Shown piece after piece: positions 13,885 through 38,036 of a stretch of 64,000 nucleotides of DNA (positions are counted from its first letter, which is position 1; the number at the start of each line of letters is the position of its first letter). This DNA is from a bacterium (GTDB taxonomy: Bacteria; UBA8248). The stretch spans positions 608,001 to 672,000 of the forward strand of contig OY843592.1 in the NCBI GenBank assembly GCA_963692865.2. The letters are read 5' to 3'. A program made the position numbers and the translations under genes. The notes beneath the pieces were generated by a model. It saw nothing but the letters and a program-made list of their open reading frames with translations. It did no database searches and was not told where the DNA came from.

Positions 13885-13998
13885 GAGCCACTCCAATCCG
13901 AGAACATCTCCTCGAAGCGCGCAAATTGACACGCCCCGAGCGGAAAATTATTGTAGACTCTTTCAGGTGGGCTGTTAACGACGCATCACGAGGCGGAC

Positions 13999-22405: not shown

Positions 22406-22434
22406 TTGACCGCCAAATTCTACCCCGCTAAACT
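22406..22434 (+). promoter_or_regulatory. Sigma70-type promoter for the lipid-transport operon
   Basis: TTGACC-N17-TAAACT. Confidence 0.5.
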
Positions 22435-22712
22435 GAATCTTGCACGGGGCGATGGGATGAACTCCGACAACGACGCGGACCGGCCTTCGCGAAGGACGCC
22501 CGGAAAGAGGAGCTTTCGCCGCCCGAGGTTTTTCGCGCCACAGGTCATTCGTTATGCGCGACAACCGTCGTATCCGCCCCGGGTTTCACGGCTTTCGCCG
22601 CATCGGGATTCGAGGTCAGTCGGGCGCTCGGTCTGATGGTGGCGATCACGATCAGTTTCGCGCTTTTGGCGGACTTCCCGCTTCCGCCGACGGCTCTCGA
22701 CCGGAGGAATTG

Positions 22713-23531
22713 ATGATGCCAGATCGCCTCACCCGCGCCACGCTATCGTTTCTCGTAATCTGCGCGTATCTCCTGATCCACCCGCCCGCGCCGCCGCGCG
22801 CCGAGGGCGCGACGCCCGAGGAAAAAGGGATACGGATCGCTCGCGAGACCCGCGAGAGAGGGAGAGGCTTCGGAAACTTCACGGCCGAGCAGAGCATGGT
22901 GCTGCGCAACAGGCACGGACAGGAGAGCCGCCGCCGGCTCCGCGTGAAGGTTCTCGAGACGGACGGCGGCGGCAACAAGAGCCTGTTCGTCTTCGACCGT
23001 CCGCGCGACGTGAAGGGCACGGCGCTGCTCGTCCACTCCCACAAGAAGAAGAACGACGACCAGTGGCTCTTCCTGCCCGCCCTCAAGCGGGTCAAGCGCA
23101 TCAGTTCGTCCAACCAGTCCGGTTCGTTCATGGGCAGCGAATTCGCCTACGAGGACATGGGCACCCAGGAGGTCGAGAAATTCACCTACCGCTACCTGCG
23201 CGACGAGCCTTGCGGCAAGCTGACGTGCACGGTCGTCGAGCGCTTCCCGACGAACAAGCGCTCGGGCTACACGCGCCAGATCGTCTGGCAGGACAAGGGC
23301 GAGCTTCGCGCCTGGAAGGTCCAGTACTACGACCGCAAGAACGCGCACTTGAAGACGCTCACCGTGGATAAATACAAACGGTACCTGGACAGGTACTGGC
23401 AGGCGGGCGAAATGAAGATGGTGAACCACCTGACGGGCAAGAGCACCGTGCTGCGCTGGAAGGACTACAAGTTCCGCACCAACCTCAAGGAGAGCGAATT
23501 CACGCGAACCGGCCTGAGACGGGTGCGCTGA
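22713..23531 (+). CDS. Outer-membrane lipoprotein-sorting (LolA-like) periplasmic carrier
   Basis: Signal peptide; P.DVKGTALL...DDQWLFLPALKRVKRISS....GSFMGSEFAYEDM signature; GGAGG RBS. Confidence 0.88.
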   Translation: MMPDRLTRATLSFLVICAYLLIHPPAPPRAEGATPEEKGIRIARETRERGRGFGNFTAEQSMVLRNRHGQESRRRLRVKVLETDGGGNKSLFVFDRPRDVKGTALLVHSHKKKNDDQWLFLPALKRVKRISSSNQSGSFMGSEFAYEDMGTQEVEKFTYRYLRDEPCGKLTCTVVERFPTNKRSGYTRQIVWQDKGELRAWKVQYYDRKNAHLKTLTVDKYKRYLDRYWQAGEMKMVNHLTGKSTVLRWKDYKFRTNLKESEFTRTGLRRVR

Positions 23532-24787
23532 TGCCGCTGCGCGCCGCCTTCCGCCGCGCGGCGCCCGCCGCCGTCTCGATATGGGCCGCCCTCCTCTTCG
23601 CGGGGGCGAGCCACGGGGCCGAAAGCATCGAGCACGAGTTCTCCGGGAGCCTGGAGGTCGAGAGCCGCTGGTATCCCCAAAAAGGCGCGCACCCGGAGCA
23701 GCGCGCGCACGCGAGCGGCTTCGCCGTCGATCCGAAACTCCATCTCAAGGGCGAGGGCGAGTGGAGCGTCACCATCGCGCCGTTCGCCCGTTACGACGGG
23801 GCGGACTCGCGCCGCACTTACGCCGACCTGCGCGAAGCCTATTTTCTGACGTACGGCGAAATCGGCGACGGTGAATGGGAACTCCGCCTGGGCGTGGACC
23901 GCGTGTTCTGGGGCGTCACCGAATCGCAGCACCTCGTCGACATCATCAACCAGACCGACCTCGTCGCCCACCCGAACAAGGAAACCAAACTGGGCCAGCC
24001 GATGGCGCACCTCACCTGGTCGGCGGAGTGGGGCATCCTGGAGTTGTTCGCCCTCACCTATCACCGCGCGCGCACATACCCGGGCCGCCACGGCCGCCTG
24101 CGCTCCGCGCTCGTCATCGACGATGAGCACGTCTCATACGAAAGCGCCGCCGGGGAGTGGCGCGTGGACCTGGCGGCCCGCTTCACCCGCAGCATGGGGC
24201 CCTTGGACCTGGGGCTCAGCGTATTCGACGGCACGAGCCGGGAGCCCTACGTCAGGCCGCATTTCGACCCGCGCGGTGGGGTGAGCCTGCGGCATCACTA
24301 CGACAAGATTCGCCAGTTCAGCGTGGACGCCCAGTACACCGTGGAGTCGTGGCTCCTCAAGCTGGAAGCCGTTCACCGCGAGGGCGCGCGCAACCTCCGG
24401 GGCGTGAAGGAGGACTTCGCCGCTTTCGTCGTCGGGGGGGAATACACCTTCAACTCCATCTGGGGCTCGGCCGCCGACCTCGGCCTGCTCGCCGAATGGA
24501 ATTACGACGAGCGGGAAGAACGCTCGAACTCCGAGTTCCAGAACGACCTCTTCTTCGCCGTTCGGATCGGGCTCAACGACGCCCAGAGCACGGAAATCAT
24601 CGCGGGCGTTCTCGCGGACTCGGACCACGCCACGCGCACCCTGAGCGTCGAACTGAGGCGGCGCCTCTCGGATCAGTGGTCCATGAAGCTCGAAGCCATC
24701 GTTCTCATGGACGTCGACCGAGAGGACATCATCTACGACACGAGGCGGGACAGCTTCGTGGCCCTGAACGTGACGTACAACTTCTAA
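23531..24787 (+). CDS. Outer-membrane beta-barrel protein of LolA-like/MMPL loci
   Basis: Signal peptide; DLREAY...LG.DRVFWGVTES..LVDIINQ; C-terminal YNF beta-signal; translationally coupled to the upstream gene. Confidence 0.8.
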   Translation: MPLRAAFRRAAPAAVSIWAALLFAGASHGAESIEHEFSGSLEVESRWYPQKGAHPEQRAHASGFAVDPKLHLKGEGEWSVTIAPFARYDGADSRRTYADLREAYFLTYGEIGDGEWELRLGVDRVFWGVTESQHLVDIINQTDLVAHPNKETKLGQPMAHLTWSAEWGILELFALTYHRARTYPGRHGRLRSALVIDDEHVSYESAAGEWRVDLAARFTRSMGPLDLGLSVFDGTSREPYVRPHFDPRGGVSLRHHYDKIRQFSVDAQYTVESWLLKLEAVHREGARNLRGVKEDFAAFVVGGEYTFNSIWGSAADLGLLAEWNYDEREERSNSEFQNDLFFAVRIGLNDAQSTEIIAGVLADSDHATRTLSVELRRRLSDQWSMKLEAIVLMDVDREDIIYDTRRDSFVALNVTYNF

Positions 24788-24931
24788 AGGGGGTTTTTCC
24801 GCCCCTGCGCCCGATGGCGCCGCCGCCGGGCCTTTTCAACAACCCCCCGTGCGCGCCTTACAGGGCGCGCCGTCGATACGCGGCCGCCGCGAAGGCGAAC
24901 ACCACCCGCGCCTGACCACGCGGGACATAAA

Positions 24932-25026
24932 ACTTGAAATCCATCGATCCGCTGGGACATAATGGCTTCATCTGGCTTAACTGTTGCGGCGGCCTGCGGG
25001 TTATGTCCTCCCACTGCGCAAGCCGC
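24932..25026 (+). promoter_or_regulatory. Shared promoter/leader motif, copy A (upstream of MMPL)
   Basis: TTGAAA-N18-CATAAT then a TGGCTT...CCACTGCGCAAGCCGC leader, homologous to 30550-30642. Confidence 0.65.
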
Positions 25027-25115
25027 CTTGCGACGATTGGGAGCCGTTTCCGGTAAACAACCGCCCCGGGAGCCGGCGGTTTTGACGCGGCCAGGCGCCG
25101 CCGGACAGTGAATCC

Positions 25116-27410
25116 ATGAATTCCGCATCCCTCGAGCGATACATCGCGTTCATGCTGCGCCGCAGGTGGCTGGTTCTCGCCTCCGCCCTGGGCGTAATGC
25201 TGCTCATGGCGGCCGGTCTGCGCTTCATCAACATTTCCAACGACTGGCGCGACATGCTCGATGCGGGCAACCCGCAACTCGTCGCATTCGACGCCATGGA
25301 GGCCACCTATTCGGCGACCAACGCGGCGTTGATCGCCCTGGCGCCCAAGGGGGGGACGATATTCACCCGCGAGGCGCTCGGCGCCATCGAGGAGCTGACC
25401 GACGCCTTGTGGCGCGTGCCCAAGTCCGTCCGCGTCGACTCCCTGACCAACTACAACCACACCGAGGCGGAAGGGGACGACTTGATCGTGGAGCGCCTCG
25501 TGGACGACGCGGGGAAGCTCGGCGACGAAGACCTCGCGCGGATCAAGAAGATTGCGCTGGGCGAGAGCAGCATCAGGGGCCGTCTCGTCTCGCGCGACGG
25601 GCGCGTCGCCGGGCTGGTCGTCACTTTCGCCCTGCCCAGGCGTTCGGACGCCGCGGAGATCCAGATTCTGAACCACCTCCGCGGCCTCCTGGCGGAGGCC
25701 CGGAAGAAACACCCCGACATCGCCTACCACGTGACCGGCAACGTCTTCGTGAACCAGGTGCTGACGGCCGCGGCCCAGGACGACATGGGGATTCTCGCGC
25801 CCGCCGCGTTCCTCGTCATCGTGACCGTCGCCGCCATCCTCCTGCGCTCCCTGTTCGGAACGATGTCCCTCGTCATCGTGATCATCTTCACCGTCGTTTC
25901 GACCATGGGCTTCATCGGCTGGACCGGCCTGACGCTCAACGCCGCCAACTCCGGCGTTCCCCTCATCATCATGACGCTCGCCATCGCGCACTCGGTCCAC
26001 GTCGTCGAGGCGATCATGACCGGCATGAGGAGAGGCCTGGAGAGAGACGCCGCGATCGCCGAGTCGCTGCGCGAGAACGCCTGGCCGGTGTTCCTCACGA
26101 CGGCCACGACGATAATCGGGTTCCTCAGCATGAACGCCTCGGACTCTCCGCCGTTTCGGCTCCTCGGCAACCTGGTGGCGTTCGGCATGCTGTGCGCCTA
26201 CGTCTATTCGATGACGCTTCTGCCCGCGCTGCTGCTGGTGCTGCCGATGCGCGCGCGCCCTTCGCGCGGGGGGCATTCCAATATCTTCGACCGCCTCGGG
26301 GCCTTCGTCGTCGAGCGCCGCACGCTCCTGCTGTGGTCCGTGGCCGCCTTCGCCGTCTTCCTGGTGGCGGGCATTCCGCGCATCGAGCTGACGGACAACT
26401 GGACGCAGCATCTGGATGAGCGCTACGAGTTCCGGCGCGACACGGACTTCGTCATCGAGAATCTCTCCGGCGTGGAAACCCTGGAGTATTCCCTGGACTC
26501 CGGGCGCGAAGCCGGCATCACCGACCCCGCCTACCTGCGAAAGGCCGAAGCCTTCGCCCGGTGGTTCCGCGCCCAGCCGGAAGTGGCGCACGTCCAGACG
26601 TTTACGGACATCATGAAGCGCCTCAACAAGAACATGCACGGCGACGACCCGGCCTTCCACCGGCTGCCCGAAGACCCCAGGCTCGCCGCGCAGTACCTGC
26701 TGCTCTACGAGTTTTCGGTGCCCATGGGGATGGACCTCAACAACCGCATCAACGTCGCCAAATCCGCCACGCGCATGACCGTCACGCTCAAAAGGCTCAA
26801 GTCCGAGGAGCTGCGCGCGATCGAGGCGCGCGGGCAGGCCTGGCTCACCGCCAACGCGCCCGGCCTCGCGAAAGAGGCGTCGGGCTACAGCCTCATCTTC
26901 GCCCACCTGGCCATACGGAACACCGAGAGCATGTTGTACGGCACGCTCACGGGCATGCTCCTCATTTCGCTGATCCTGATCGGGATTTTCAAAAGCCTGC
27001 GCCTGGGCCTCATCAGCCTCGTGCCCAACCTCATCCCCTCGGCCATGGCCTTCGGCGTCTGGGGCTATCTGTACGTCGAGGTGGGGCCCGCCGGCTCTCT
27101 CGTGACCGCCATCGCCTTCGGCACCGTCGTCGACGACACGATCCACTTCATGAGCAACTACCTCAAGTCGCGCCGCGAGGGTCTTTCCGCGAGCGATGCG
27201 GTGCGCGCCACGTTCCGCGCGGTGGGCAGCGCGCTGTTCGCCACGACCATGGTCCTGGTGCTCGGCTTCCTGGTGTTCGCCACGTCGGGGTTCGCCATCA
27301 GCTGGATGCTCGGCCTCCTGTTCGCGCTCACGCTCAGCTTCGCGCTGTTCTGCGATTTGCTGCTCCTGCCGCCCCTGCTCATGGCCATTGACCGCAGGGC
27401 GTATCGGTGA
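25116..27410 (+). CDS. MMPL/RND family lipid transporter
   Basis: Two repeats of TM-periplasmic loop-5TM; LTTATTIIGFLS, SLVPNLIP and GTVVDDTIHF motifs. Confidence 0.9.
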   Translation: MNSASLERYIAFMLRRRWLVLASALGVMLLMAAGLRFINISNDWRDMLDAGNPQLVAFDAMEATYSATNAALIALAPKGGTIFTREALGAIEELTDALWRVPKSVRVDSLTNYNHTEAEGDDLIVERLVDDAGKLGDEDLARIKKIALGESSIRGRLVSRDGRVAGLVVTFALPRRSDAAEIQILNHLRGLLAEARKKHPDIAYHVTGNVFVNQVLTAAAQDDMGILAPAAFLVIVTVAAILLRSLFGTMSLVIVIIFTVVSTMGFIGWTGLTLNAANSGVPLIIMTLAIAHSVHVVEAIMTGMRRGLERDAAIAESLRENAWPVFLTTATTIIGFLSMNASDSPPFRLLGNLVAFGMLCAYVYSMTLLPALLLVLPMRARPSRGGHSNIFDRLGAFVVERRTLLLWSVAAFAVFLVAGIPRIELTDNWTQHLDERYEFRRDTDFVIENLSGVETLEYSLDSGREAGITDPAYLRKAEAFARWFRAQPEVAHVQTFTDIMKRLNKNMHGDDPAFHRLPEDPRLAAQYLLLYEFSVPMGMDLNNRINVAKSATRMTVTLKRLKSEELRAIEARGQAWLTANAPGLAKEASGYSLIFAHLAIRNTESMLYGTLTGMLLISLILIGIFKSLRLGLISLVPNLIPSAMAFGVWGYLYVEVGPAGSLVTAIAFGTVVDDTIHFMSNYLKSRREGLSASDAVRATFRAVGSALFATTMVLVLGFLVFATSGFAISWMLGLLFALTLSFALFCDLLLLPPLLMAIDRRAYR

Positions 27411-27529
27411 AGTACAGGCTCACCGACATCCTCAAAGACGCGAAATCCGGCGGCGTCGAAGCCGGTCGCTTCGGCATCTTCACTCCGATGTATTTCATCC
27501 TCGCCCGCAAGCCGGAACAGGGAGGGGCG
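27407..27529 (+). pseudogene. C-terminal remnant of a sterol methyltransferase
   Basis: VEAGRFGIFTPMYFILARKP matches the SMT C-terminal motif (VAGGKTGIFTPLYCFLARKP in 35628-36656); the rest of the enzyme is absent. Confidence 0.7.
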
Positions 27530-27599
27530 GTTGGGGAAGTCCACGGCGGTCGGGTTCGCCGGGCGACGGGGAAGAGCGGATCCTCTCGCATCAATCGGG

Positions 27600-28480
27600 C
27601 TGCGCCTGTAGGGGCCGCATGTGGAGTTGCTGAAAAAGTCCCCTGACGGGGTAAAGGCAACCCCCTTGAAGGGGAAATCCCATAAAGGCAACCCCCCCTA
27701 CCCCCCCTTGTCAGGGGGGTAAGAAAAACCAAAGCCCCCTCTACCCGGCGAGAGGTGTCGCTTTTTTATACCCCCCTGACAAGGGGCTGTTGAAAAAGTC
27801 TGGAATGCCGGTATGGGGGCGACGGGATACCACCTTGCCGGAGGTGTGTAGGGGCCGCATATTATGCGGCCCGCCGCCGGAGAAGCGAAAAAAGGCCGGG
27901 TCGCATAATATGCGACCCCTACGGGTAAAACGTGGTTGATGCGAGGGGGATAGCTTTTTCAACAGCCCTGACAAGGGGGGGGGTAGGGGGGGGTTGGTTT
28001 TCGAGGCAGGGGGAGGACGAGCGGGGCGGGGTTTTGATCGTCATTCCGGCGAAAGCCGGAATCCAGAGCCGATGTGAATTTCGAACCGCAGGACGACCAT
28101 GAAAAACAATCATGCGAAAAGACAAATTCAAAAGCAAAGTCCCTGGATTCCGGCTTTCGCCGGAATGACGGCGTGCAATCTCGATTGCAGGGGTCGTTCG
28201 AGAACGGTTCCTGTCCGCGAAAGCGGGCGGTTCGCGAACCGCCCCTACACAGGGAGCGGCAACGATGCCGGAATGACGGCGGTGATCAATTCCGATCGAG
28301 AAAAGGTTTTTCAACAACCCCGCCTTGGGCGGGATTGACCCCTTGAGGGGGAGTCGGTGGGGGGAGTTTTTATTTTAGAACCATACCCCCACGCATCAGC
28401 CTTCGCACAAGGCGCTCGGCTTCTGCTACTCCCCCTCAAAGGGGGAGTGATTTGGCCCGGCCCGCAAGGGCCGTAGCGAG
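27600..28480. repeat. Repeat mosaic R5
   Basis: GTAG-REPs, CCCCCCTACCCCCCCTTGTCAGGGGG hairpins, an inverted GTCATTCCGGCGAAAGCCGGAATCC pair, CCCCTTGAGGGGGAGT and MITE ends. Confidence 0.85.
27784..27968. mobile_element. MITE (185 bp) carrying an inverted REP doublet
   Basis: TIRs GGGCTGTTGAAAAAG / CTTTTTCAACAGCCC flanked by TGACAAG (27777-27783, 27969-27975); shares one ~50-bp end with 1440-1599. Confidence 0.78.
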
Positions 28481-28498
28481 GGCCGCGGGAAGCGCGCA

Positions 28499-29239
28499 AT
28501 GAACAAGATGACGTTCCACGCCTGCTTGATCATCGCCTGCATGTTCGCGTCGGCGGGGACCGCCCGAGCGCAGTCGCTGGAAGAGGCGCGCGCCGCATAC
28601 GCCGAGGGCCGCTTCACCGAGGCCGCGGAGCTCGCCCGGTCGCTCGGCGCCTCCGAAGGCCATGCGCTGGCCGCCGATTCCCTGGCGATTCACGGCTACT
28701 ACGTCGCGCCCGCGGGCGAAAAGGCGGACTTGTTCCGGCGGGCCGAGAAACTCGCGCGGGAGGCCGTCAGGCTCGACGCGGCCAACCCCGAGGCCCATCT
28801 CCAGTTGGCCCACGCCATGGGCCGCCAGGCGCAGGCGGCCGGGCCGCTCAAGGCGCTCAAGGAGGGCTACGCCGCCAAAGTGCGCGACGCGATAGAGGAG
28901 GCGCTTCGGCTGGACCCGAAAATGGCGGCCGCGCACGTCAGCCTGGCCGCCTGGCACGCGGGCGCCGTCGGCGCGGGCGGATTCTTCGCCGCCCTGCTCT
29001 ACGGGGCGAGCGAAGAGAAGGCGCTCGCCCATTTCGAGCGGGCGCTCGAACTGACGCCGCGGGACAAGACGGCGCTGTTCGAGTACGCCACCGGCCTCCT
29101 GAGCCTGGACGCCGGGGAGAACCGCGCGAGGGCGCGCGATCTGCTGGAGCGCGCGATTGGGATACCGCCGAAAGACGCCTTCGAGCGGCTCGTTCACCAA
29201 AGGGCGGTCGCGCGGCTGGCGGCTCTCGGCGATGGATAG
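28499..29239 (+). CDS. Secreted TPR-like helical protein
   Basis: Signal peptide ending ARA-Q; repeats AVRLDAANPEAH, ALRLDPKMAAAH and ALELTPRD. Confidence 0.8.
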   Translation: MNKMTFHACLIIACMFASAGTARAQSLEEARAAYAEGRFTEAAELARSLGASEGHALAADSLAIHGYYVAPAGEKADLFRRAEKLAREAVRLDAANPEAHLQLAHAMGRQAQAAGPLKALKEGYAAKVRDAIEEALRLDPKMAAAHVSLAAWHAGAVGAGGFFAALLYGASEEKALAHFERALELTPRDKTALFEYATGLLSLDAGENRARARDLLERAIGIPPKDAFERLVHQRAVARLAALGDG

Positions 29240-29297
29240 GGGGTCGGCGAGAAAGGCCTTGCGGATCGGTCGAGATTCTATGGTAGGGGCCGCATAT

Positions 29298-30501
29298 CAT
29301 GCGGCCCGCCTTGTGGAGGCGAAAATCAGGGTCGCATGGTATGCGACCCCTACACTTGCGCTGCAAACAGGGTCGCTTATGGACATGGACAATCGGGTGC
29401 CATCTCGACCTCGCCCCGAGTAGTCCTGAGCCCGTCGAAGGAGGTACCGAAGGGCTGTCTCTCCTCCCCTCCGCAAACGCGAGATGCCCCGTAGGGGCCG
29501 CATATCATGCGGCCCGCTTCGCCGCCCCCCGATCATGGGCCGCATTATATGTCGGACATATATGTCTGACCTACGGAAAGCAATCCTCACTCCCTCCTTG
29601 AGGGGATTGTTGAAAAGTCCCGTCTTCCCCCCCCCCACAAACCGCCAACGCCTCTTTCCTCACCCTGAGTAGCCGCCGAAGGTCAAACGCGAGAGGCGCT
29701 GTAGGGGTCGCATATCATGCGACCCGTATTGTGAAGGCGAAAAGGCAGGGCCGCATGATATGTCAGACATATATGTCTGACCTACGGCGGGATTACCGAC
29801 TGACCTGCAAGGACTTTTTCAACAACCCCGACAAGGGGGGGGTAGGGGGGGTTGCCTTTATCCCGCCAGGAAAGTTTTCAACAACCCCACAACCGCGGCA
29901 CCATGCGGCCCGCCCTGTGGAGGCGAAAATCAGGGTCGCATGGTATGCGACCCCTACACTTGCGCTGCAAACAGGGTCGCTTATGGACATGGACAATCGG
30001 GTGCCATCTCGACCTCGCCCCGAGTAGTCCTGAGCCCGTCGAAGGAGGTACCGAAGGGCTGTCTCTCCTCCCCTCCGCAAACGCGAGATGCCCCGTAGGG
30101 GCCGCATATCATGCGGCCCGCTTCGCCGTCCCCCGATCATGGGCCGCATGATATGTCGGACATATATGTCTGACCTACGGAAAGCAATCCTCACTCCCTC
30201 CTTGAGGGGATTGTTGAAAAGTCCCGTCTTCCCCCCCCCCACAAACCGCCAACGCCTCTTTCCTCACCCTGAGTAGCCGCCGAAGGTCAAACGCGAGAGG
30301 CGCTGTAGGGGTCGCATATCATGCGACCCGTATTGTGAAGGCGAAAAGGCAGGGCCGCATGATATGTCAGACATATATGTCTGACCTACGGCGGGATTAC
30401 CGACTGACCTGCAAGGACTTTTTCAACAACCCCGACAAGGGGAGGGTAGGGGGGGTTGCCTTTATCCCGCCAGGAAAGTTTTCAACAACCCCACAACCGC
30501 G
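29298..30501. repeat. Tandem duplication (period 604 bp) of a REP/MITE mosaic
   Basis: 29298-29897 and 29902-30501 are nearly identical, with about four substitutions seen by eye. Confidence 0.92.
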
Positions 30502-30549
30502 TCCCCACGCGGCCTTCGGCGGGCCGGAGCGCCCGGTACGGAACGAAAT

Positions 30550-30642
30550 ACTTGAAATCAATCGTTTTGCTGGGCCATAATGGCCCCGGTTGGCTTCCTG
30601 CGTGGCGGCCCGAGCCTCATGGACTTCCACTGCACAAGCCGC
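30550..30642 (+). promoter_or_regulatory. Shared promoter/leader motif, copy B (upstream of P450)
   Basis: TTGAAA-N18-CATAAT then TGGCTT...CCACTGCACAAGCCGC, homologous to 24932-25026. Confidence 0.65.
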
Positions 30643-30687
30643 GTGGAGCAAAATGCTCCCCCACCGATTCTTGAGGCGCATCGTCCG

Positions 30688-32724
30688 ATGAGACTGATAG
30701 AAGAGATTGTGCTTCTCCTGCTGAACGAAGAGAGCGGATATCTCGAACAGGTGGCGGGCTGGAATCTCTCGTGCGTTCTGGCAGGCGCCGTGCTGGCGGA
30801 CCTCGACCTCGAATCCCGTATCGACACCGGCCAGGAGTTGCTTTCGGTGGAGGATGCGTCCCCTTTGGGAGACGACCTCCTCGACCCCGTGCTGGAGACC
30901 ATCGCCCGCGACCCCGAACCGCGCACCGTCGGTTACTGGATCGAGAAGATCGGCGGCGAGTCGAACGAGCTCCTGGATCACGTTTTCGAGCGGTTGGTGA
31001 GAAATAAAATCCTGGACCATGCGATCGGCGGCTTCTGGTCTCTCTCGCGAAACGTGACGAACGGGGACTCCACCACGTCCAGCAGCCGGTTGCGGGCGAC
31101 GGCGCGCCGGCGAATCGTCGATACGATCCTGGGGGACGAAATACCCGACCCCCGCGACGCCATCATCATCGGCCTCGCCAATTCCTGCGGCGCGTTCCGG
31201 TTTCTCTTGCAGCCGGAAGACTACGAGGCTTCACGCGAGCGCATCGAACTGCTGAGCATACTGGACCGCATCAGCCGCTCCGTCGCCGCCGCCGTCGTAG
31301 AGACGTCGATCCATCGCTCCATTGCGATAGCGACAAAACCCGTTCCCGACATCAGCCTGCTGAAATTGCTCCGCAAAGACGCGCTTTGGGAAGGAAACGT
31401 GGCCAGGCTGCTGGCCGACCTTTACCGCGACTACGGCCCGGTCTTCGCGCTCAAGGCTCCCTTCTCCAAAAAGAGGGTTTTCATCCTCGCGGGAAACGAG
31501 GCCAACATCTGGTTCAACCGGCAAAGCCGGATGCACATGCGCTCGAAAGAAACCATGGAGGGCATGGAGCACGTGCTCGGCGCATCGAGAAGCCTGCCGG
31601 GCATGGACGGGGCCGAACACTTCCGCATGCGCAAGGCGTTCCAGATGGCCTCCTCCCGGAACCGCCTGAACGGACGGCTCGGAGATCTGTTCGAAGAGAT
31701 ACGGCTGTCGCTTGATTCGTGGAGCGCGGGCGACGTGCTCGTCGCCAAGGACGCAAGCCGGACTCTTATGTCCGGCCAGGTGTCCCGGCTCCTGTTCAGC
31801 ATGGATTTTTCAGAATACGTAGACGACATCCACAAATACAAGAACCGCATGCTGATCACCTACGCGCAGAAGATTTTGCCGAAGTCCTTCATGCGAACGC
31901 CGCGCATGAAAGCCATCCGGCGGCGCATCGACCACGTCTATTCCATGATCAGGAATTCGCACACCCCGGCGCAGCGCGAAAACCAGCCCCGCGACCTGAT
32001 CGACGACCTGCTCAGCCTGCATGCCAGCGACCCGCAGTACTTTCCGGATACCGATACCAGGTTCATGATGATCATACCCTTCGTCGCGGCCATGTATATG
32101 GGCACCGCCGTCGGGTTCGGGCTCTTTCTGATGGCCTCCCATCCGGACATCTACCAGCGCGTGCGCAGGGAAGCCGAGGCGCTGTTCGCGAACGGAGACC
32201 CCCGGCCGGAGGACTTGACGCCGGAGGCCATGGACACCGCCCACCGGCTGATTCTCGAAACCCTCCGGCTCTACCCCAGCGTCCCCCTGCAAATGAGAAC
32301 CGTCATGAACAGCTGCATCGTGGAGGGCTACGAACTGCCCCTCGATGCCCGCGTCGTGCTGGCGTCCACCGCCGTTCATTACATGGAGGAGAACTATCCC
32401 GATCCGCGGACGTTCGACATCGACCGGTATCTTCCCGGGCGAGAGGAGCACAAGAAACACGGGGCTTTCGGGACATGGGGTTTCGGCACCCACACCTGCC
32501 TCGGCCCGAGAGTGGCGGAATATCAGATGACGATCAACCTTTTGATGATCGCCTACTATTTCGAGCTGGAAGCGATGCCCTCCTGCTACCCGGTGAAAGT
32601 CAATCCGTTCCCGACCTGCACCCCGCGCAAGAGCCTCAAGCTACGAATCAAGTCGAAGCGGCCGCTCTTCCCGAGCGATCGGGCGGTCGCCTCCGACGAT
32701 CGGGAGGTCGCCCTGCATTCCTGA
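30688..32724 (+). CDS. GPP34 (GOLPH3/Vps74-like)-cytochrome P450 fusion
   Basis: N-terminal L.EEIVLLLL.EE.G...LAGAVLADL.LE.RI...GDDLLD.VL..I (GPP34-like); C-terminal P450 with ETLR and GFGTHTCLG heme motif. Confidence 0.85.
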   Translation: MRLIEEIVLLLLNEESGYLEQVAGWNLSCVLAGAVLADLDLESRIDTGQELLSVEDASPLGDDLLDPVLETIARDPEPRTVGYWIEKIGGESNELLDHVFERLVRNKILDHAIGGFWSLSRNVTNGDSTTSSSRLRATARRRIVDTILGDEIPDPRDAIIIGLANSCGAFRFLLQPEDYEASRERIELLSILDRISRSVAAAVVETSIHRSIAIATKPVPDISLLKLLRKDALWEGNVARLLADLYRDYGPVFALKAPFSKKRVFILAGNEANIWFNRQSRMHMRSKETMEGMEHVLGASRSLPGMDGAEHFRMRKAFQMASSRNRLNGRLGDLFEEIRLSLDSWSAGDVLVAKDASRTLMSGQVSRLLFSMDFSEYVDDIHKYKNRMLITYAQKILPKSFMRTPRMKAIRRRIDHVYSMIRNSHTPAQRENQPRDLIDDLLSLHASDPQYFPDTDTRFMMIIPFVAAMYMGTAVGFGLFLMASHPDIYQRVRREAEALFANGDPRPEDLTPEAMDTAHRLILETLRLYPSVPLQMRTVMNSCIVEGYELPLDARVVLASTAVHYMEENYPDPRTFDIDRYLPGREEHKKHGAFGTWGFGTHTCLGPRVAEYQMTINLLMIAYYFELEAMPSCYPVKVNPFPTCTPRKSLKLRIKSKRPLFPSDRAVASDDREVALHS

Positions 32725-32951
32725 CTCGCGGGGCCCGCGCGGCGGCCGAAACACCGCGCAAACCGGCGGATTCGCCGTTCTTTACCGCATCAAAATTTCT
32801 TGACAACGCAAGGAGCGTTGGCGAGTATGTCAGGATAAGGCTTATCGAGATGTCGTAACCCGTATTCCGATTCGGGGAAGAGACTCGAATGAATTGCTTC
32901 GTCGAACGATTATCAGTCCGGGCCGCATCGACCCGAAAACAAGGAGCCGTC

Positions 32952-33878
32952 ATGAGATCGATTTCACACCGGAAAAACCCTCCTATTCAAACGATCTTTG
33001 CGGCCGCCGCCGCCGCGTTTCTTCTCATAGCGTTCGCGCCCGACGCGCGCGCCGCGGATTCGGGCGCGAAAGCCCAGGACCCGAAATGGTATTTCAGCCT
33101 GAGCGTGCCGGTCATGTTCATCGACGACTCGGACAGCGTCGAGAAGGGCGCCGTGCCGAGTCCCGCTGGCAAAACTGACTACACGGCGAAAGCCCTCACG
33201 GAATACGCTACGGGGTACAGGGTGAGCGGCGCGCTGGGCCGTGAATTCGGCAACGGCCTGCGCGTCGACGGCGAGGTGTTCCTCGCCAGCGCCAAGGTCG
33301 ACAAGCTGATCTACAAGGGACGCACGACGACCTTCCCTACTCAACAGGGACCAATGACTATAGATGTACCGGGCGAGAGTTCCATCCCCGTGTCCGGCTC
33401 GGCAAGCCAGATGGGCGCCATGGTGAACGTCTGGTACGATTTCAATACCGGCTCCAAATGGACGCCATACGTCGGCTTCGGCCTCGGCTTCCTCCGGGTC
33501 GATTGGGGCGACGTGAAGTATGACCGCAACGAGGTCGCGCAAGGAGCTGCCGACCAGATTGCGCGCTTACAATGCAAAGCCCTTCCCCCTGGCGTCCAGC
33601 AGGATCAGTGTCTACAAGGGGTTCAAGCAGGGGCTGCCAAACTGCCCCCGGGGACCGTGCCCGAACTCTCCGACACGGATACGGTGCTCGCCTATCAACT
33701 CGGCCTGGGGCTGGCCTACGAGTATTCCGACGCCATTACCTTTCAGGTGGGCTACCGCCTGTCGAGGTCCGGCGATCTGGAGTTCAGCGGCAAGAACACC
33801 ATGACCATGGCGACGGCCACGGCGACCACGGACATGCAGGTTCATCTCTTCGAGTTGGGCATACGCTATCGATTCTAG
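32952..33878 (+). CDS. Opa/OmpA-like 8-stranded outer-membrane beta-barrel
   Basis: Signal peptide; G.RVD.E, MVNVWYDF...WTPYVGFGLG, AYQLGLG..Y and terminal GIRYRF; AAGGAG RBS. Confidence 0.85.
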   Translation: MRSISHRKNPPIQTIFAAAAAAFLLIAFAPDARAADSGAKAQDPKWYFSLSVPVMFIDDSDSVEKGAVPSPAGKTDYTAKALTEYATGYRVSGALGREFGNGLRVDGEVFLASAKVDKLIYKGRTTTFPTQQGPMTIDVPGESSIPVSGSASQMGAMVNVWYDFNTGSKWTPYVGFGLGFLRVDWGDVKYDRNEVAQGAADQIARLQCKALPPGVQQDQCLQGVQAGAAKLPPGTVPELSDTDTVLAYQLGLGLAYEYSDAITFQVGYRLSRSGDLEFSGKNTMTMATATATTDMQVHLFELGIRYRF

Positions 33879-34010
33879 GCGTCGCGTGAACCCCGAACGC
33901 CCCGGCGGGAGGAAAGGTGGCATGGCGCGCGCTTCGATCGGTCGTCGGCCGGGCGTGAGGCCGGCCGAACTCGCAGGCGAAGCCGCAACCTTCGAACCAG
34001 GGGATGGCGG

Positions 34011-35048
34011 ATGTCGATGAAAGCCGGCCGAATCGAGCGCGACGACGCATCCTCGCTTTATCCGTTTCCGGAAGGCTGGTACTTCGTCGCCGGCCGAAAG
34101 ACGATAGAGAAGAAGAAACTGATCCAGAGAACCTGGATGGGCGAGCGAATCGTCGTCTGGTGCGACGATGAGGGCCGCATCTGCGTGGCGGAGGACTTGT
34201 GTCCGCATCTGGGTTCGGAGCTCGGCCCCGAAGTCGGCGGCATGGTGCGGGGCGGCTGCCTCGTCTGCCCCTTCCACGGGTTCGAGTTCGACGTTTCCGG
34301 ACAATGCGTCAAGACGCCCTACGCGCCGGCGCCCAGGACCGCCAGGCTTAAAACTTTCGAGACGCGCGAAATCCTGGGCATCGTCTTCGCCTGGTGGGGG
34401 GTCGATGGACGCCCGCCGCAATGGCGCCTGCCGGAGGAGCCCGCCGGAGACGACTGGAGCGGGCTGGAGACCTGGAGCGTCCGGTTCACGGGGCATCCCC
34501 AGGAGACGACCGAGAACTCGGTGGACGACGGACACCTGCGCTACGTGCACGGCTTCGGCAGCGTGAACCGGGTCGGAACGATAGAGGTGGACGGCGCCTA
34601 CCTCAGGAGCTGTTTCGACTTCAGGAAAACCCAGGCCGTCGCCGGGATCAACATCTACACGTACGACGTTTCCGCCATCACCCACGTGCACGGGCTGGGC
34701 TATTCGTTCGTCGAGGTCCACGAGGACGGCATCGGCATGGATACCCGCCTGTGGGTGCTCGCGACGCCCATCGACGCCGAAACCGTCGAAATGACGCTGT
34801 TCAGCCAGGTGAAGCGAATACGCAGACCGAAGCGGGCGATCATCGGAATGCGCTTCCTGCCGGCGGGTCTTCGCACCAGAATCATGAACAAAATCCTCAT
34901 CACGGCCCAGAAGCGCGACGTTTTGCTGGACGTCGTCATATGGGACAGGAAACATTACGTGCCCCGCCCCCGCCTGTGCGGCTCGGACGGGGAGATCGGA
35001 GCCTTCCGGCGTTATTGCGAGCAGTTCTACCCGGAGCGGGGGTGTTGA
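34011..35048 (+). CDS. Rieske non-heme iron oxygenase, KshA/Neverland (sterol-acting) type
   Basis: CPHLG...CPFHG, ENSVDDGHLRYVH and C-terminal DVVIWDRKHY..P.L...DG.I..FRRYCEQFY. Confidence 0.85.
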   Translation: MSMKAGRIERDDASSLYPFPEGWYFVAGRKTIEKKKLIQRTWMGERIVVWCDDEGRICVAEDLCPHLGSELGPEVGGMVRGGCLVCPFHGFEFDVSGQCVKTPYAPAPRTARLKTFETREILGIVFAWWGVDGRPPQWRLPEEPAGDDWSGLETWSVRFTGHPQETTENSVDDGHLRYVHGFGSVNRVGTIEVDGAYLRSCFDFRKTQAVAGINIYTYDVSAITHVHGLGYSFVEVHEDGIGMDTRLWVLATPIDAETVEMTLFSQVKRIRRPKRAIIGMRFLPAGLRTRIMNKILITAQKRDVLLDVVIWDRKHYVPRPRLCGSDGEIGAFRRYCEQFYPERGC

Positions 35049-35575
35049 AAAAGGCCTGCTTCGAAACAGGGCGGACACTCAGGTCCCCGGACAGGCTCCT
35101 GCGCCTGTCCGGCTACGCGAGACGCAATGGTTCTGTAGGGGAGGACCCGTGTGTCCTCCCCTGAGCGCCGTTCTGGTCGTGAGCCTGATGTAGGGGTCGC
35201 ATATCATGCGACCCGCATATCGAACGGGGAGGGCCGCATGATATGTCGGACATATATGTCCGACCTACGGACCAAACCCGACCGAAGGAGGGTTGTTGAA
35301 AAAGCGTCTATGAACGAGGGTTCGGCGCGACCGACGGGAAGAAAGAGAATCACTCCCCCCTTGAGGGGGAGTCGAAAAAACCCGGGCTTGGGAGCGGGCG
35401 GTATGGAGTCTCACGCAGCGGTGGAGGTGAAGCCGGCCCGGCGCGAGCAGGCGTGATTGTTAGCGTAGGGGCCGCATATCATGCGGCCCATGGTCGGCAG
35501 GCGTAAAAGGCAGGGCCGCATGATATGCGGCCCCTACAGACCAAACCCGACCGAAGGGGGGTTGTAAAAAAGGCC
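35038..35575. repeat. Repeat mosaic R7
   Basis: Three same-orientation MITE left ends (35038, 35290, 35558), GTAG-REP doublets, ACTCCCCCCTTGAGGGGGAGTC and a repeated GACCAAACCCGACCGAAGG block. Confidence 0.82.
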
Positions 35576-35627
35576 GCCGGGAGGCGGGTTTCGCCGTAGA
35601 GAGACAGGAAGAGGGACACGCGACGCC

Positions 35628-36656
35628 ATGGAAATCGGCAAACTATCGAACGAGTTGAAGGACGCGTACGGGGGAGAGGACGTCGCCCGCCGCGTGCAGG
35701 ACTTCGAGGACTGGATCGAGCGCGCGGAGGCCGACGGCGCGGGCGGGTACGACCACACCCAGACGGTGAAGGACTACTACGACCTCTGCAGCGGGTTCAT
35801 GGTGTGGGGCTGGGGCGAATCCCTGCACTTCGCGCCCCTCTCGCCCGAGGAGAGCCTGGAGGAATCCAAGGTCCGGCATCAGCGGCTGATGATCTCCAAG
35901 CTGGAGCTGCAGCAGGGCATGGCGGTGGTCGACGTCGGTTGCGGAATCGGCGGCCCGATGCGCCGCGTCGTCCGTGAGGCGGGCGTCCGGGTCGTCGGGA
36001 TCAACATCAACAAAATCCAGCTGGAAAAGGCGAAGAGGCTGAACGCCGAGGCGGGGCTCGACCACATGATCGATTACGAGGCGTGCAGCTTCATGGACAT
36101 GAGCGCCGTCGAAGACGAGACGTTCGACCGGGGCTACGCCATCGAGTCGACGTGCCATGCGCCGGACAAGCGGCGCGCGTTCGAGGAGATATTCCGCGTG
36201 CTGAAGCCCGGCGCCCTGTTCTGGGGGCAGGAGATGTGCCTGACGGAGAAGTTCGACCCCGGCGACGACCGGCACCGGGCCCTCAAGCGCGACCTCATGC
36301 TCGGCATCGCGCTCAAGGAGGTCGCGACGTTCGCGGAAGTGAACCGCGCGCTCGAAGCGGCGGGTTTCGAGGTCGTGGAGGGGATGGACCGGGAAGTCCG
36401 GGAGGGGCCATCCACGCCGTGGTACCAACCCATGGAGAGCCGGCACGGGACGCTGGGCAACGCCCTGCGCAGGCTTCCGCAGGGCCGCAGGGCGGTCCTC
36501 GCGGGATCGAAGCTGGCCGAAGTCGTCCGGCTGTTCCCGAAGGGGTCCGCGGAAGTCGTCCGCCTCCTGGACCGGACCGCGGACGCCTACGTCGCGGGCG
36601 GCAAGACGGGCATCTTCACGCCGCTGTACTGCTTCCTGGCCCGCAAACCCCGTTAG
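35628..36656 (+). CDS. C24-sterol methyltransferase (SMT/ERG6) homologue
   Basis: YYDL...WGWGESLHFAP, VDVGCGIGGP, YAIESTCHAP, EIFRVLKPG and C-terminal GIFTPLY...RKP. Confidence 0.9.
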   Translation: MEIGKLSNELKDAYGGEDVARRVQDFEDWIERAEADGAGGYDHTQTVKDYYDLCSGFMVWGWGESLHFAPLSPEESLEESKVRHQRLMISKLELQQGMAVVDVGCGIGGPMRRVVREAGVRVVGININKIQLEKAKRLNAEAGLDHMIDYEACSFMDMSAVEDETFDRGYAIESTCHAPDKRRAFEEIFRVLKPGALFWGQEMCLTEKFDPGDDRHRALKRDLMLGIALKEVATFAEVNRALEAAGFEVVEGMDREVREGPSTPWYQPMESRHGTLGNALRRLPQGRRAVLAGSKLAEVVRLFPKGSAEVVRLLDRTADAYVAGGKTGIFTPLYCFLARKPR

Positions 36657-36750
36657 GCGCAAGCGGCCGGCGGGCGCGCCGGAGTTGCGCGGGCTTTTGG
36701 AGTTGACTCCCCTCTTGACTGTCGATTGCACACGCTGAATCACGAAACCA

Positions 36751-37792
36751 GGGCTTTTTCAACAAGCCCATATGCGACCCCCGCAAACCGCCAACGCCTC
36801 TTTCCTCACCCTGAGTAGCCGCCGAGCCGCGTATCGAAGGTCAATCGCGACCAATGCGGGAGCGATTGCCGACCAAAAAGGGGAGCGCTCCCCTCGATAG
36901 ACTCGGGCAAGCCCTTCGATACAAACGCTCCTTCCTCGGGGCTGTTGAAAAACCTGTCCCTCTCGGATCAACCACGTTTTATCCGTAGGGGCCGTTCGCG
37001 AACGGCCCTCCCCGGAGAAGAAACGGGCGCTTCACGAAGCGCCCCTACGGTCGTCTTTCAAGAGGGTATGTAGGGGCCGCATATCATGCGGCCCGCCGCC
37101 GGAAAGGCGAAAAGGCCGGGCCGCATGATATGCGGCCCCTACAATCGAAACAGCAAAATGACGCCCGGAGCCGAGCGCGCGGCTTCGGCCTGCTACCGAA
37201 GACGGAGCCGGTTCGTCATCCGGACGCTCCCGCCGCCGTCATGCGCCGGAGCGACGAACCACGAGCTTCCCTTCCGCCGGACAGCGCAACCCCTCTCTCC
37301 CAAGGGCTGTTGAAAACTTTCCTGACGGGGTACAGGCAACTCTCCCTTGTCAGGGGTCAATTTCGAGCGATGAGCGAGAAATTGCGCGCCGATGCGTTTC
37401 TCATCAATGGCTTATGCAAACGCTCGCTCCTCACTCGCGTTTGACCCCTGACGAGGGGGGGGTAGGGAGGTTGCCTTTACAGGGTTGTTGAAAAAGTCCT
37501 CCAATCGAGAGTGTTCACCGTCATTCCGGCGAAAGCCGGAATCCATTTGCTTTGCCTTTGCTTTTTTGTTTTCTGATTGGTTCCCGTCAATGACGGAGAG
37601 ATGAAAAGCCGGAGTATTGTCATTCCGCTTGAAAATGGATTCCGGCTTTCGCCGGAATGACGAATAAAACCGAACCGGCCCGAAAGGACAGGCCGCGACC
37701 TCGGACAGGCTAAAGGGCCTGTCCGCTGCGCGCGCCCTCCCCGGTTATTTGCATTCGCCAAATCTCGAAATCAGAGGTTTTTCAACAACCCC
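36751..37792. repeat. Repeat mosaic R8, including MITE-like unit 37482-37791
   Basis: MITE ends, GTAG-REPs, CCTGAGTAG...TATCGAAGG and an inverted GTCATTCCGGCGAAAGCCGGAATCC pair; the last repeat cluster in the window. Confidence 0.85.
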
Positions 37793-38036
37793 GAAAGCGC
37801 CGCCACCGCCTCATCCCGGGCAGGCGCGCGCGCCGCATCGGGGGATGCGCGGCGGGCGGTGTCGAACCCCGCCCGGAGCCGGGCGCGCTTTTCGCCCATC
37901 CGCGCCGCGCCGGGAGCGGGCCGTCTCGGGCGGGTTCCGGGGGGCGTTTCTCCGGAAGGGGCGCGCTCCCGGAGAGAGCGCGTGAGGAGCGCAGGGATTC
38001 AGGATAATGCAAATAATCATATTTTCGACAAAATTG

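Follow-up and report, generated by a model that had tools for sequence, protein, structure and literature searches.

The 64,000-nucleotide window analyzed here (G000:C1:608001-672000, with G000 denoting the genome assembly) carries nine consecutive plus-strand units between rarA (20549-21991, minus strand) and sua5/yrdC (39374-40009), both flanks being of housekeeping character. On balance, we favor the view that these units form a modular island for sterol tailoring and envelope transport, of a type belonging to sponge-associated bacteria, that salvages sterols made by others. The bacterium, a relative of sponge-associated Nitrospinota, most likely reworks sterols from its surroundings. The core of the proposed system would consist of a GPP34-fused cytochrome P450, a KshA_C-type Rieske oxygenase, an atypical sterol methyltransferase (SMT) family enzyme that we call SMT1, and an unlinked ERG4/ERG24-type reductase, and its envelope part of an RND/MMPL pump, a LolA-like carrier, a DUF1302-like barrel, a BstC/TatT-like TPR protein, and a small porin-like barrel. 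Some congeners hold the island together with a squalene epoxidase-oxidosqualene cyclase (SE-OSC) fusion and would thereby have their own sterol nucleus. The substrate, each reaction, and the direction of transport (import versus export) are what we infer, with import read only from the missing cyclase.

The island and the sterol genes of its genome

A first-pass annotation of the window had remarked that it contains no oxidosqualene cyclase or squalene epoxidase, and had proposed that the genome be checked for osc and shc. The absence holds for the whole genome, in domain searches as well as by tblastn. The squalene/oxidosqualene cyclase families PF13243 and PF13249 and the squalene epoxidase family PF08491 have zero matches in the whole of G000, and tblastn of G000 returned nothing either with a relative's 1189-amino-acid epoxidase-cyclase fusion or with the ERG2-type isomerase of the congener G010. 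Nor did tblastn detect an orthologue in G000 of the CYP51-like, SdmA-like, and SdmB-like proteins of G010, as these queries gave weak matches (21-28% identity) to the island P450, the island Rieske protein, and generic dehydrogenases. By these searches the genome appears to be without cyclase, epoxidase, CYP51, C-4 demethylase, and C-8 isomerase, and the island could therefore only act on the sterols of others, whether of a host or of neighboring microbes.

Pfam profile search of the open reading frames (ORFs) in the window, on which the domain bit scores below are based, confirmed all nine plus-strand units that the annotation had listed. They are given here with the two larger spacers that separate them.

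22554-23531, + strand: LolA-like periplasmic lipid carrier (PF17131; also DUF1329); LolA_like 203.6 bits, DUF1329 28.3 bits (cut-off 23.1)
23531-24787, + strand: DUF1302-like outer-membrane beta-barrel; 24.9 bits, marginal against a cut-off of 23.2; signal peptide, C-terminal Phe
25116-27410, + strand: RND transporter of the MMPL/HAE3 type; MMPL 131.3, Sterol-sensing 30.8, Patched SSD 29 bits; about 11 hydrophobic spans
27411-27646, + strand: remnant of SMT2, a canonical SMT paralogue; Sterol_MT_C 38.3 bits at 27416-27517; about 34 last residues only
27647-28498, no strand: intergenic spacer of short interspersed, partly palindromic repeats, multi-copy genome-wide
28499-29239, + strand: secreted all-helical TPR protein; TPR hits, signal peptide, structure model with pLDDT (predicted local distance difference test score) 89
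29240-30579, no strand: spacer with repeats resembling repetitive extragenic palindromes (REP) and a 604-bp tandem duplication (29298-30201)
30580-32724, + strand: GPP34 (GOLPH3-like)-cytochrome P450 fusion; GPP34 105.4 bits (cut-off 29.1), p450 134.5 bits
32889-33878, + strand: small outer-membrane beta-barrel (OMP_b-brl); 47 bits; signal peptide, C-terminal Phe
34011-35048, + strand: Rieske [2Fe-2S] oxygenase with KshA_C catalytic domain; Rieske 66.7, KshA_C 81.2 bits
35628-36656, + strand: SMT-family methyltransferase of a distinct subfamily (SMT1); Sterol_MT_C (PF08498) 60.9 bits (cut-off 21.7), Methyltransf_11 65.2 bits

The start of the DUF1302-like gene overlaps the stop of the LolA-like gene. 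Comparison with relatives places three true starts later than the longest frame, at Met54 of the LolA-like protein (about 22713), Met37 of the fusion (30688), and Met22 of the small barrel (about 32952), and the signal peptide of the LolA-like protein follows directly on this probable Met54 start. Signal peptides are found on all four envelope proteins and on none of the three enzymes (0/3). Because the P450 fusion, the Rieske protein, and SMT1 have neither signal peptide nor membrane span, we read the enzyme core as cytoplasmic. Among the scanned window ORFs there is no ring-degradation gene, as the annotation had stated, and no KshB partner; no genome-wide search for ring-degradation genes was made.

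The proposed sterol-tailoring set extends beyond the island. G000 encodes an ERG4/ERG24-family reductase (110.9 bits) at G000:C1:1367271-1368410 (L020 9271-10410), where it stands alone amid TRAP/TctA transporter genes. We tie this unlinked gene to the system because the metagenome locus L081 holds its counterpart (a G000-type ERG4-like reductase, 81%) inside the cluster, beside SMT, LolA-like, DUF1302-like, MMPL, and fusion genes. The family occurs in 11 genomes of the genus, comprising 11 of the 14 that hold any island gene and none of the 9 others.

Recurrence in relatives and selection

The gene set is tied to sterol metabolism by synteny in relatives, among them G010. In that genome the order is SMT2, ERG2, SE-OSC fusion, CYP51-like P450, ERG24, a VanA_C-type Rieske gene (SdmA-like), an SdmB-like gene, a reverse-transcriptase fragment, GPP34-P450, and SMT1, with the GPP34-P450 82% and SMT1 83% identical to their counterparts in the window. 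The metagenome loci L048, L088, and L089 repeat this arrangement. The reverse-transcriptase fragment (RVT_1; L016 14627-15346, G010:C23) lies between the de novo sterol genes and GPP34-P450/SMT1, and may have been left there when the two modules came together. The left-hand set of G010 equals the msbA-F locus described as a de novo sterol pathway in the available text on a sponge gammaproteobacterium (PMC7074536), and it matches the SMT-containing symbiont clusters that the main text of Brown et al. 2023 (PMC10070321) likewise presents as de novo pathways. An msb-type set (SdmB, SdmA, ERG24, CYP51, SE-OSC, SMT) directly adjoins the island P450 and SMT1 in G010, G014, L048, and L088. The relatives of the island share the sponge habitat label with these published symbionts, and SMT-family genes occur in both; in contrast to the msb and Brown et al. 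loci, the window genome is without any msb-type gene, and GPP34-P450, KshA_C Rieske, and SMT1 are not among the enzymes named in the main texts of PMC7074536 and PMC10070321.

The annotation had proposed a synteny search across genomes and habitats, and the set does recur in relatives and on metagenome contigs. A contig scan with an alignment of seven fusions yielded 80 loci, 11 of which were dropped because the match stopped short of the GPP34 part; the 69 loci covering GPP34 collapsed into 55 groups at 95% amino-acid identity. A neighbor was counted when tblastn gave E <=1e-15 with at least 40% query coverage within the fetched flank (10 kb), and the well-flanked subset comprises the 29 groups in which each side extends over 5 kb or more. 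Counts are given below for all groups and then for this subset.

KshA-type Rieske: 25/55; 17/29
SMT1-type SMT: 20/55; 14/29
Rieske or SMT: 36/55; 23/29
Rieske and SMT: 12/55; 9/29
MMPL: 12/55; 8/29
LolA-like: 10/55; 8/29
Epoxidase-cyclase: 3/55; 2/29

The 38 loci with a Rieske or SMT1-type neighbor range from 0.50 to 0.68 in guanine-plus-cytosine (GC) content, and the fusions found in the contig scan from 29 to 83% in identity; from this width we take the module to be spread over diverse lineages. At 80-82% identity the fusion is found in metagenome-assembled genomes (MAGs) assigned to Nitrospinota or simply to 'bacterium'.

Within a 51-genome phylum set, the SMT C-terminal domain is confined to the genus of the window (11/23 genomes there, 0/28 elsewhere). 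Orthologues of the Rieske gene occur in 13 of the 23 genus genomes, of the fusion (at least 70% identity) in 11, and of the island MMPL (at least 80%) in 12; the genomes are kin and not independent, so that these counts describe a pattern and carry no statistical test. A cyclase is present in 5/23 (G007, G010, G011, G014, and G020), always inside an open frame of about 1130-1210 amino acids, a length that agrees with the epoxidase-cyclase fusion, Pfam-confirmed in G010. CYP51-like and SdmA-like genes are found in G010 and G014 only (2/23). The system is thus not inherently cyclase-independent, as relatives in the same genus have the cyclase; it is absent from 8 of the 13 Rieske-bearing genomes (G000, G008, G009, G012, G018, G019, G024, and G028), among which G018, G024, and G028 are assembled in 1 contig each and G019 in 2.

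Gene order is shared by G018, G019, G012, G007, G011, and G024, in which a block of SMT1, Rieske, and barrel is followed on the opposite strand by MMPL, SMT2 or its remnant, TPR, and fusion, and then by a block of DUF1302-like and LolA-like genes. In G000 both outer blocks are inverted, with the result that all genes point in the same direction. G000, G018/G019, and G012 carry the island at different places in the chromosome. As marks of mobility we looked for tRNA genes, none of which lies in the window, and for integrases, none of which is among the scanned ORFs. In GC content the cluster (0.60-0.65) matches its genome (0.611). The cyclase island of G007 shows no synteny with G000, and as the cyclase lies in variable regions no deletion scar can be defined. 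Beside SMT1, incomplete duplicates or remnants of the KshA-type Rieske gene stand at L024 15528-16010 (G011:C30) and L008 12880-12957 (G010:C23), which shows that the SMT1/Rieske junction has been rearranged repeatedly in relatives.

The long gaps between the island genes of G000 are made of short (about 45-170 bp), partly palindromic repeats resembling REP elements or miniature inverted-repeat transposable elements (MITEs), which have very many copies in the genome and are not genes. They fill 27647-28498, 29240-30579, 35049-35627, and 36657-37810, as well as 19879-20461. Relatives have much shorter spacers at these places, the counterpart of 29240-30579 measuring about 260 bp in G018.

Selection was gauged by omega, the ratio of nonsynonymous to synonymous divergence (NG86), on a G000-anchored codon alignment of seven concatenated genes from which the fast-evolving barrel was excluded. 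Omega was 0.22-0.35 in the six pairs in which both genomes are cyclase-less, 0.23 in the sole pair in which both have the cyclase, and 0.20-0.33 in four mixed pairs. By the same comparison the core genes of the flanks gave 0.05-0.20, after control rows with synonymous divergence (dS) <=0.22 and omega of 0.54-1.78 had been dropped as probable wrong-frame ORFs (L003 2005-2493; L021 2845-3594 and 5204-6964; L006 1763-3004, 15111-16544, and 20193-21026). The island is under purifying selection that is weaker than that on core genes and is not visibly relaxed where the cyclase is missing. G000, G018, and G019 have a common SMT2 deletion yet stand about 0.35 apart in dS.

Contigs 95-97% identical to the stretch were found in a run labeled sponge metagenome (X6). 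Short contigs of two metatranscriptome libraries (X8 and X12) fall on the P450, barrel, Rieske, and SMT genes, which is a weak hint that the island is transcribed, as DNA carry-over is possible in such libraries; regions left uncovered in them are no evidence of silence.

Enzymes and envelope proteins

The P450 part of the fusion contains the invariant heme ligand Cys640 in FGTHTCLG and the ExxR motif. Its closest solved structure is 7wzl, followed by CYP51s (E 1e-22 to 1e-19), and its neighbors in the Atlas belong to generic 'cytochrome P450' clusters only, with no named reaction among them. Orthology to CYP51 was considered and rejected: CYP51 chains match at E 1e-20 to 1e-13, identity to the CYP51-like protein of G010 is 22.6%, and in that genome the CYP51-like P450 coexists with the fusion. 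The fusion is single copy and is the sole P450 detected in G000 with the queries used. Its GPP34 domain is homologous to GOLPH3 (3kn1, E 5.2e-07) and Vps74. Of the residues of GOLPH3 that we take to bind phosphatidylinositol 4-phosphate (PI4P), the alignment shows the presumed W81, R171, and R174 to be kept, and the presumed R90 is Ala.

In G007, G011, and G020 (loci L014, L019, and L018, respectively) the epoxidase-cyclase is flanked by a second, divergent GPP34-P450 (37-39%) and a divergent MMPL gene (47-48%). No orthologue of the CYP51-like or SdmA-like gene of G010 was found in these three genomes at E 1e-30, which suggests that the fusion paralogues act there on early sterol intermediates.

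According to the main text of PMC11706023, GPP34-P450 fusions are exclusive to sponge symbionts (656 of 663 multi-domain GPP34 proteins); the GPP34_L family described there was found in 4/4 sponge Nitrospinota genomes and in many phyla, and has the same two-domain architecture as the fusion in the window. The fusion is read there as an aid against phagocytosis that binds PI4P. In contrast with that reading, the sterol-type gene sets that surround the fusion studied here point to an enzyme that modifies lipids. The words 'sterol' and 'methyltransferase' have 0 occurrences in that main text, in which the gene neighborhood is not weighed.

The annotation had called the Rieske protein 'KshA/Neverland-type'. 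The Rieske and KshA_C domains and the metal ligands are present, and of the several types possible for such a protein 'Neverland' is one. Among solved structures KshA is the closest to it (2zyl, E 1.3e-22), with the match mainly over residues 12-183. What we take to be the Rieske ligands (CPH...CPFH) and the mononuclear-iron motif ENSVDDGHLRYVH can both be recognized. The architecture is that of KshA, a 3-ketosteroid 9-alpha-hydroxylase; unlike KshA, the island protein stands in a context of tailoring and not of catabolism. Some of its Atlas neighbors bear the automatic name 'cholesterol 7-desaturase', which we regard as a lead only. The KshA-type Rieske gene is single copy in G000. It is not SdmA, as NCBIfam NF052579 scores 37.3 bits against a cut-off of 600 and matches the Rieske domain only, and the SdmA-like protein in the de novo locus of G010 is a VanA_C-type Rieske protein that is 21% identical.

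The second methyltransferase claim of the annotation, an 'intact C24-SMT', needs amending. The protein has an intact Sterol_MT_C domain, the S-adenosylmethionine (SAM)-binding Region II (DVGCGIGGP), and the Region III Glu (IESTCHAP), features that correspond to the Region II DxGxGxxGP and Region III Glu given as SMT features in the available text of 10.64898/2025.12.19.695621. It is not a canonical C24-SMT, as its Region I departs from that of the functional set. Region I reads FMVWGWGESLHF, with GWGESLHF and, in the published numbering, Ser78, Met81, Trp83, and Leu89. GWGxxFHF and Thr78, by contrast, belong to 25 residues that every SMT with activity on desmosterol or 24-methylenecholesterol shares, as far as the available text of 10.64898/2025.12.19.695621 describes them. 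Since SMT1 departs from a Region I that is universally conserved there, no SMT1-type enzyme is among those active in the desmosterol and 24-methylenecholesterol assays. The atypical Region I is kept in 9 genus orthologues. Among metagenome copies of the SMT1 type, Leu stands at the Phe89 position in 25/25, the third GWG residue is Ser or Asn in 9/25 (seven distinct loci), and His is replaced by Gln in 3. SMT1 therefore looks like a separate, conserved subfamily with its own Region I, which would predict a substrate or regiochemistry unlike that of the enzymes assayed so far.

SMT2 paralogues, which lie beside MMPL or cyclase genes, have the canonical (Y/F)E(Y/F)GWGxSFHF. In this genome the canonical SMT is a decayed copy, in agreement with the SMT remnant noted at first pass. 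By alignment, the breakpoint directly after the MMPL stop is common to G000, G018, and G019, and the gene is intact in G012, G011, and G024. The shared breakpoint implies that the canonical SMT was lost a single time, either in an ancestor without a cyclase or in an island variant common to these genomes.

The envelope proteins are best considered together. The LolA-like protein has a close solved homologue of unknown function (PDB 3bk5, E 9.7e-81) and orthologues in relatives at 79-85% identity; those of the DUF1302-like protein (80-87%) invariably stand beside the LolA-like gene. Both genes are single copy in G000, and we therefore regard the envelope module as paralogue-specific to the island. 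The RND protein scores 156.8 bits against the HAE3 model, below its cut-off. Its identification as HpnN was rejected, as the HpnN models give 70.3 bits (cut-off 751.85) and 25.7 bits (cut-off 1100) and no HpnN chain is among its PDB matches. Two tandem MMPL paralogues at G000:C1:1123911-1130078 are 61-62% identical to the island pump and have no LolA-like or DUF1302-like partner; similar MMPL paralogues are also present in island-free congeners.

The best global matches of the TPR model were the lipid-binding TPR domain of PTPIP51 (7cc7, TMq 0.67), 7t1s_B (0.66, root-mean-square deviation 3.2 A, 16% identity), and the TPAT-family protein 8g52_A (0.61). Generic TPR proteins scored lower by TM, although TPR folds resemble one another, and no sequence-level match to BstC was found at E up to 1. 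We take 7t1s, a 'bacterial sterol transporter' structure, to be BstC on our own reading of the eLife Bst paper. On the strength of the model, the fold of the TPR protein resembles those of sterol-binding BstC and of TatT-type TPR proteins. The small barrel, which the annotation had labeled 'Opa-like', is an OMP_b-brl barrel; the label is loose, the Opacity family scoring 18 bits against a cut-off of 21. It is the fastest-evolving gene of the set (omega 0.32-0.55).

Two known systems bear on this assembly. In Methylococcus capsulatus, Bst moves self-made sterols outward, and RND pumps of the HpnN and BstA types are described as exporters (PMC10942540). Like BstABC (PMC10942540), the island sets an MMPL-family RND protein and a periplasmic TPR protein beside sterol enzymes, the RND likeness to BstA being a match at the level of the Pfam family (MMPL) only. 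In contrast to BstABC, there is no PhnD-like BstB (no Phosphonate-bd among the cluster ORFs), a LolA-like carrier and a DUF1302-like barrel are present instead, and the genome is without an endogenous sterol source. DUF1302, DUF1329, and RND proteins are also known as a co-fit module of Proteobacteria, the role of which is unsettled between export of envelope components and an esterase function (10.1101/072470; 10.1101/2020.07.04.188060); the module has been seen in steroid (the Comamonas degradation cluster), monoterpene, and aromatic clusters. The same three families come together in the island, which differs in having no BNR-repeat ORF in its cluster.

Competing explanations and wider meaning

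If the island salvages sterols, its parts could work as follows. A sterol would cross the outer membrane through one of the two barrels, and the LolA-like protein, the TPR protein, or both would carry it across the periplasm to the RND protein. The latter, with its sterol-sensing-like domain, would transfer the sterol between carrier and inner membrane, much as NPC2 hands cholesterol to NPC1. The GPP34 domain may keep the P450 at the membrane surface, and at the cytoplasmic face the sterol would be oxidized or desaturated, methylated, and reduced by the P450, the Rieske protein, SMT1, and the ERG4-like reductase. The product might remain in the membrane or go back outward. In congeners the same hardware could export self-made sterols, and here it could export modified sterols after a pump-free entry.

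Several observations weigh against such salvage, the first of which concern export and activity. In the literature, an export function is given to the related RND class (HpnN and BstA) and to the DUF1302/DUF1329/RND module. The cluster contains no ferredoxin or reductase partner, and SMT1 is without the Thr78 and Phe89 conserved in all active SMTs, as given in the available text of the publication on them. A degree of relaxation would agree with the omega of the island, which is above that of its flanks, with the decay of SMT2, and with the invasion of the spacers by repeats. G000 has an assembly completeness of 97.41% with 6.69% contamination, in 8 contigs. Finally, an acyclic isoprenoid of the cell's own, made by tandem SQS_PSY enzymes, may be the substrate.

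This last point belongs to a wider alternative, which we judge unlikely, in which the enzymes act not on a sterol but on another isoprenoid or lipid, and the transporter moves it as well; squalene-type products of the tandem SQS_PSY genes and host terpenoids are examples. The two SQS_PSY-family genes of G000 (G000:C1:2124174-2125790; HpnC/HpnD-like or CrtM-like) have counterparts in 22/23 genus genomes irrespective of sterol genes, which speaks for this alternative; against it, the pair does not track with the island, being present in island-free genomes too. A standalone 229-amino-acid GPP34 protein lies about 15 kb from the pair at a conserved distance (e.g., G000 C1:2140498-2141121). A non-sterol substrate would fit the non-canonical Region I of SMT1 in all 25 metagenome copies and 9 genus orthologues, a P450 and a Rieske protein that are not assignable to a known sterol reaction, and the company that DUF1302/DUF1329/RND modules keep elsewhere with fatty-ester, monoterpene, and aromatic metabolism. 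It does not fit the direct linkage to SE-OSC, CYP51-like, ERG24, and SdmAB-like genes in G010, L048, L088, and L089, or the Sterol_MT_C, KshA_C, sterol-sensing-like, and ERG4/ERG24 signatures of the set. Still less probable, in our estimation, is a relic, the leftover of a de novo pathway that has no substrate since the cyclase was lost and is now decaying. The SE-OSC fusions of congeners (5/23), the SMT2 remnant in G000, G018, and G019, the repeat-swollen spacers of G000, and island omega of 0.19-0.35 against 0.05-0.20 in flanking core genes count in its favor. Yet the eight other genes are intact in G000, G018, and G019, and seven of them in G024, where SMT1 is missing; omega is not raised in cyclase-less pairs relative to the cyclase-bearing one; and the SMT2 deletion predates a dS of about 0.35 over which no further gene was lost.

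We give little credence to the idea that GPP34-P450 is an effector that binds host PI4P and blocks phagosome maturation, its neighbors being incidental. The sponge-symbiont-only occurrence of the fusions and the modulation of phagocytosis proposed for them in the main text of PMC11706023 speak for it, as does the homology of the GPP34 domain to GOLPH3, but the fusion has no signal peptide, is linked to Rieske or SMT genes in 23 of the 29 well-flanked groups, and stands beside SE-OSC in several genomes. There is only a very slight chance that a cyclase is present but was missed through an assembly gap, mis-binning, or membership in a non-canonical family. The completeness and contamination of the assembly and its division into contigs leave some room for this, as does the location of the cyclase in variable islands far from the cluster in relatives. 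Against it stand the three negative domain searches and tblastn, the missing cyclase in the nearest relatives G018 and G019 and also in G024 and G028, contiguous as these assemblies are, and the restriction of CYP51-like and SdmA-like genes to G010 and G014, together with the lack of an ERG2 or SdmB-like orthologue in G000 (the genome in which these two were searched for).

Salvage and tailoring of sterols made elsewhere is thus the reading that we prefer, and the island would be a variant of known bacterial sterol gene clusters, of RND-based sterol transport, and of sterol scavenging by host-associated bacteria. The annotation knew of no description of the complete gene set. We did not find the set as a whole in the main texts of the literature, although its parts are published: the GPP34-P450 fusion (main text of PMC11706023), symbiont SMT clusters and the msb locus (available texts of PMC10070321 and PMC7074536), and Bst transporters (PMC10942540). 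In published main texts we did not find any mention of the fusion as repeatedly linked to a KshA-type Rieske gene and a Region-I-variant SMT, of the association of these genes with the LolA/DUF1302/RND/TPR set and an ERG4-like reductase, or of the persistence of such an island under selection in cyclase-free genomes, and we found no paper that joins GPP34 with sterols in symbionts.

More tentatively, GPP34-P450 could be the core of a horizontally spread module for sterol salvage and remodeling (P450, Rieske, SMT1, ERG4-like reductase, and carriers) with which cyclase-less symbionts rework host or community sterols and return the products to the holobiont. This broader proposal is possible but, at present, doubtful. 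If it were true, some of the unconventional sterols found in sponges, and some of the steranes that serve as animal biomarkers, would stem from bacterial tailoring of sterols that were not bacterially made. The value of alkylated steranes as biomarkers of sponges or animals is already in question because of bacterial SMTs, in a debate that assumes de novo bacterial synthesis; an island selected in cyclase-free genomes would add a second route, in which bacteria edit the sterols of their host or neighbors. It would also give GPP34-P450, which is among the most symbiont-specific of sponge genes, a concrete biochemical role.

Likewise, the island may be the bacterial equivalent of the sterol-auxotroph kits found in nematodes and ciliates, and it is a candidate route for moving sterols through the envelope of a diderm. 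NPC1-type RND proteins serve in the sterol kit of C. elegans. The enzymes of that kit, as described in the available text of PMC6385002 (the DAF-36 Rieske protein, the DAF-9 P450, and the STRM-1 methyltransferase), form the same combination of families in an organism without its own sterol nucleus; in contrast to the island, the kit is eukaryotic, and the resemblance is one of functional analogy only.

Outside the island, an NFACT/RqcH-type ribosome-quality-control protein is encoded upstream at 12106-13932 on the minus strand (NFACT_N 295 bits), amid housekeeping genes. Just downstream of the island begins a stretch of about 40 kb (window 40000-64000, continuing to about G000:C1:690000) with a GC content of 0.50-0.55, against 0.611 for the genome. 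A foreign origin or a join in the assembly could explain it, and it still holds genes of housekeeping type, including dnaN, nadA, a prpD-like gene, and genes for an MscS-type channel and for MATE and MFS transporters.

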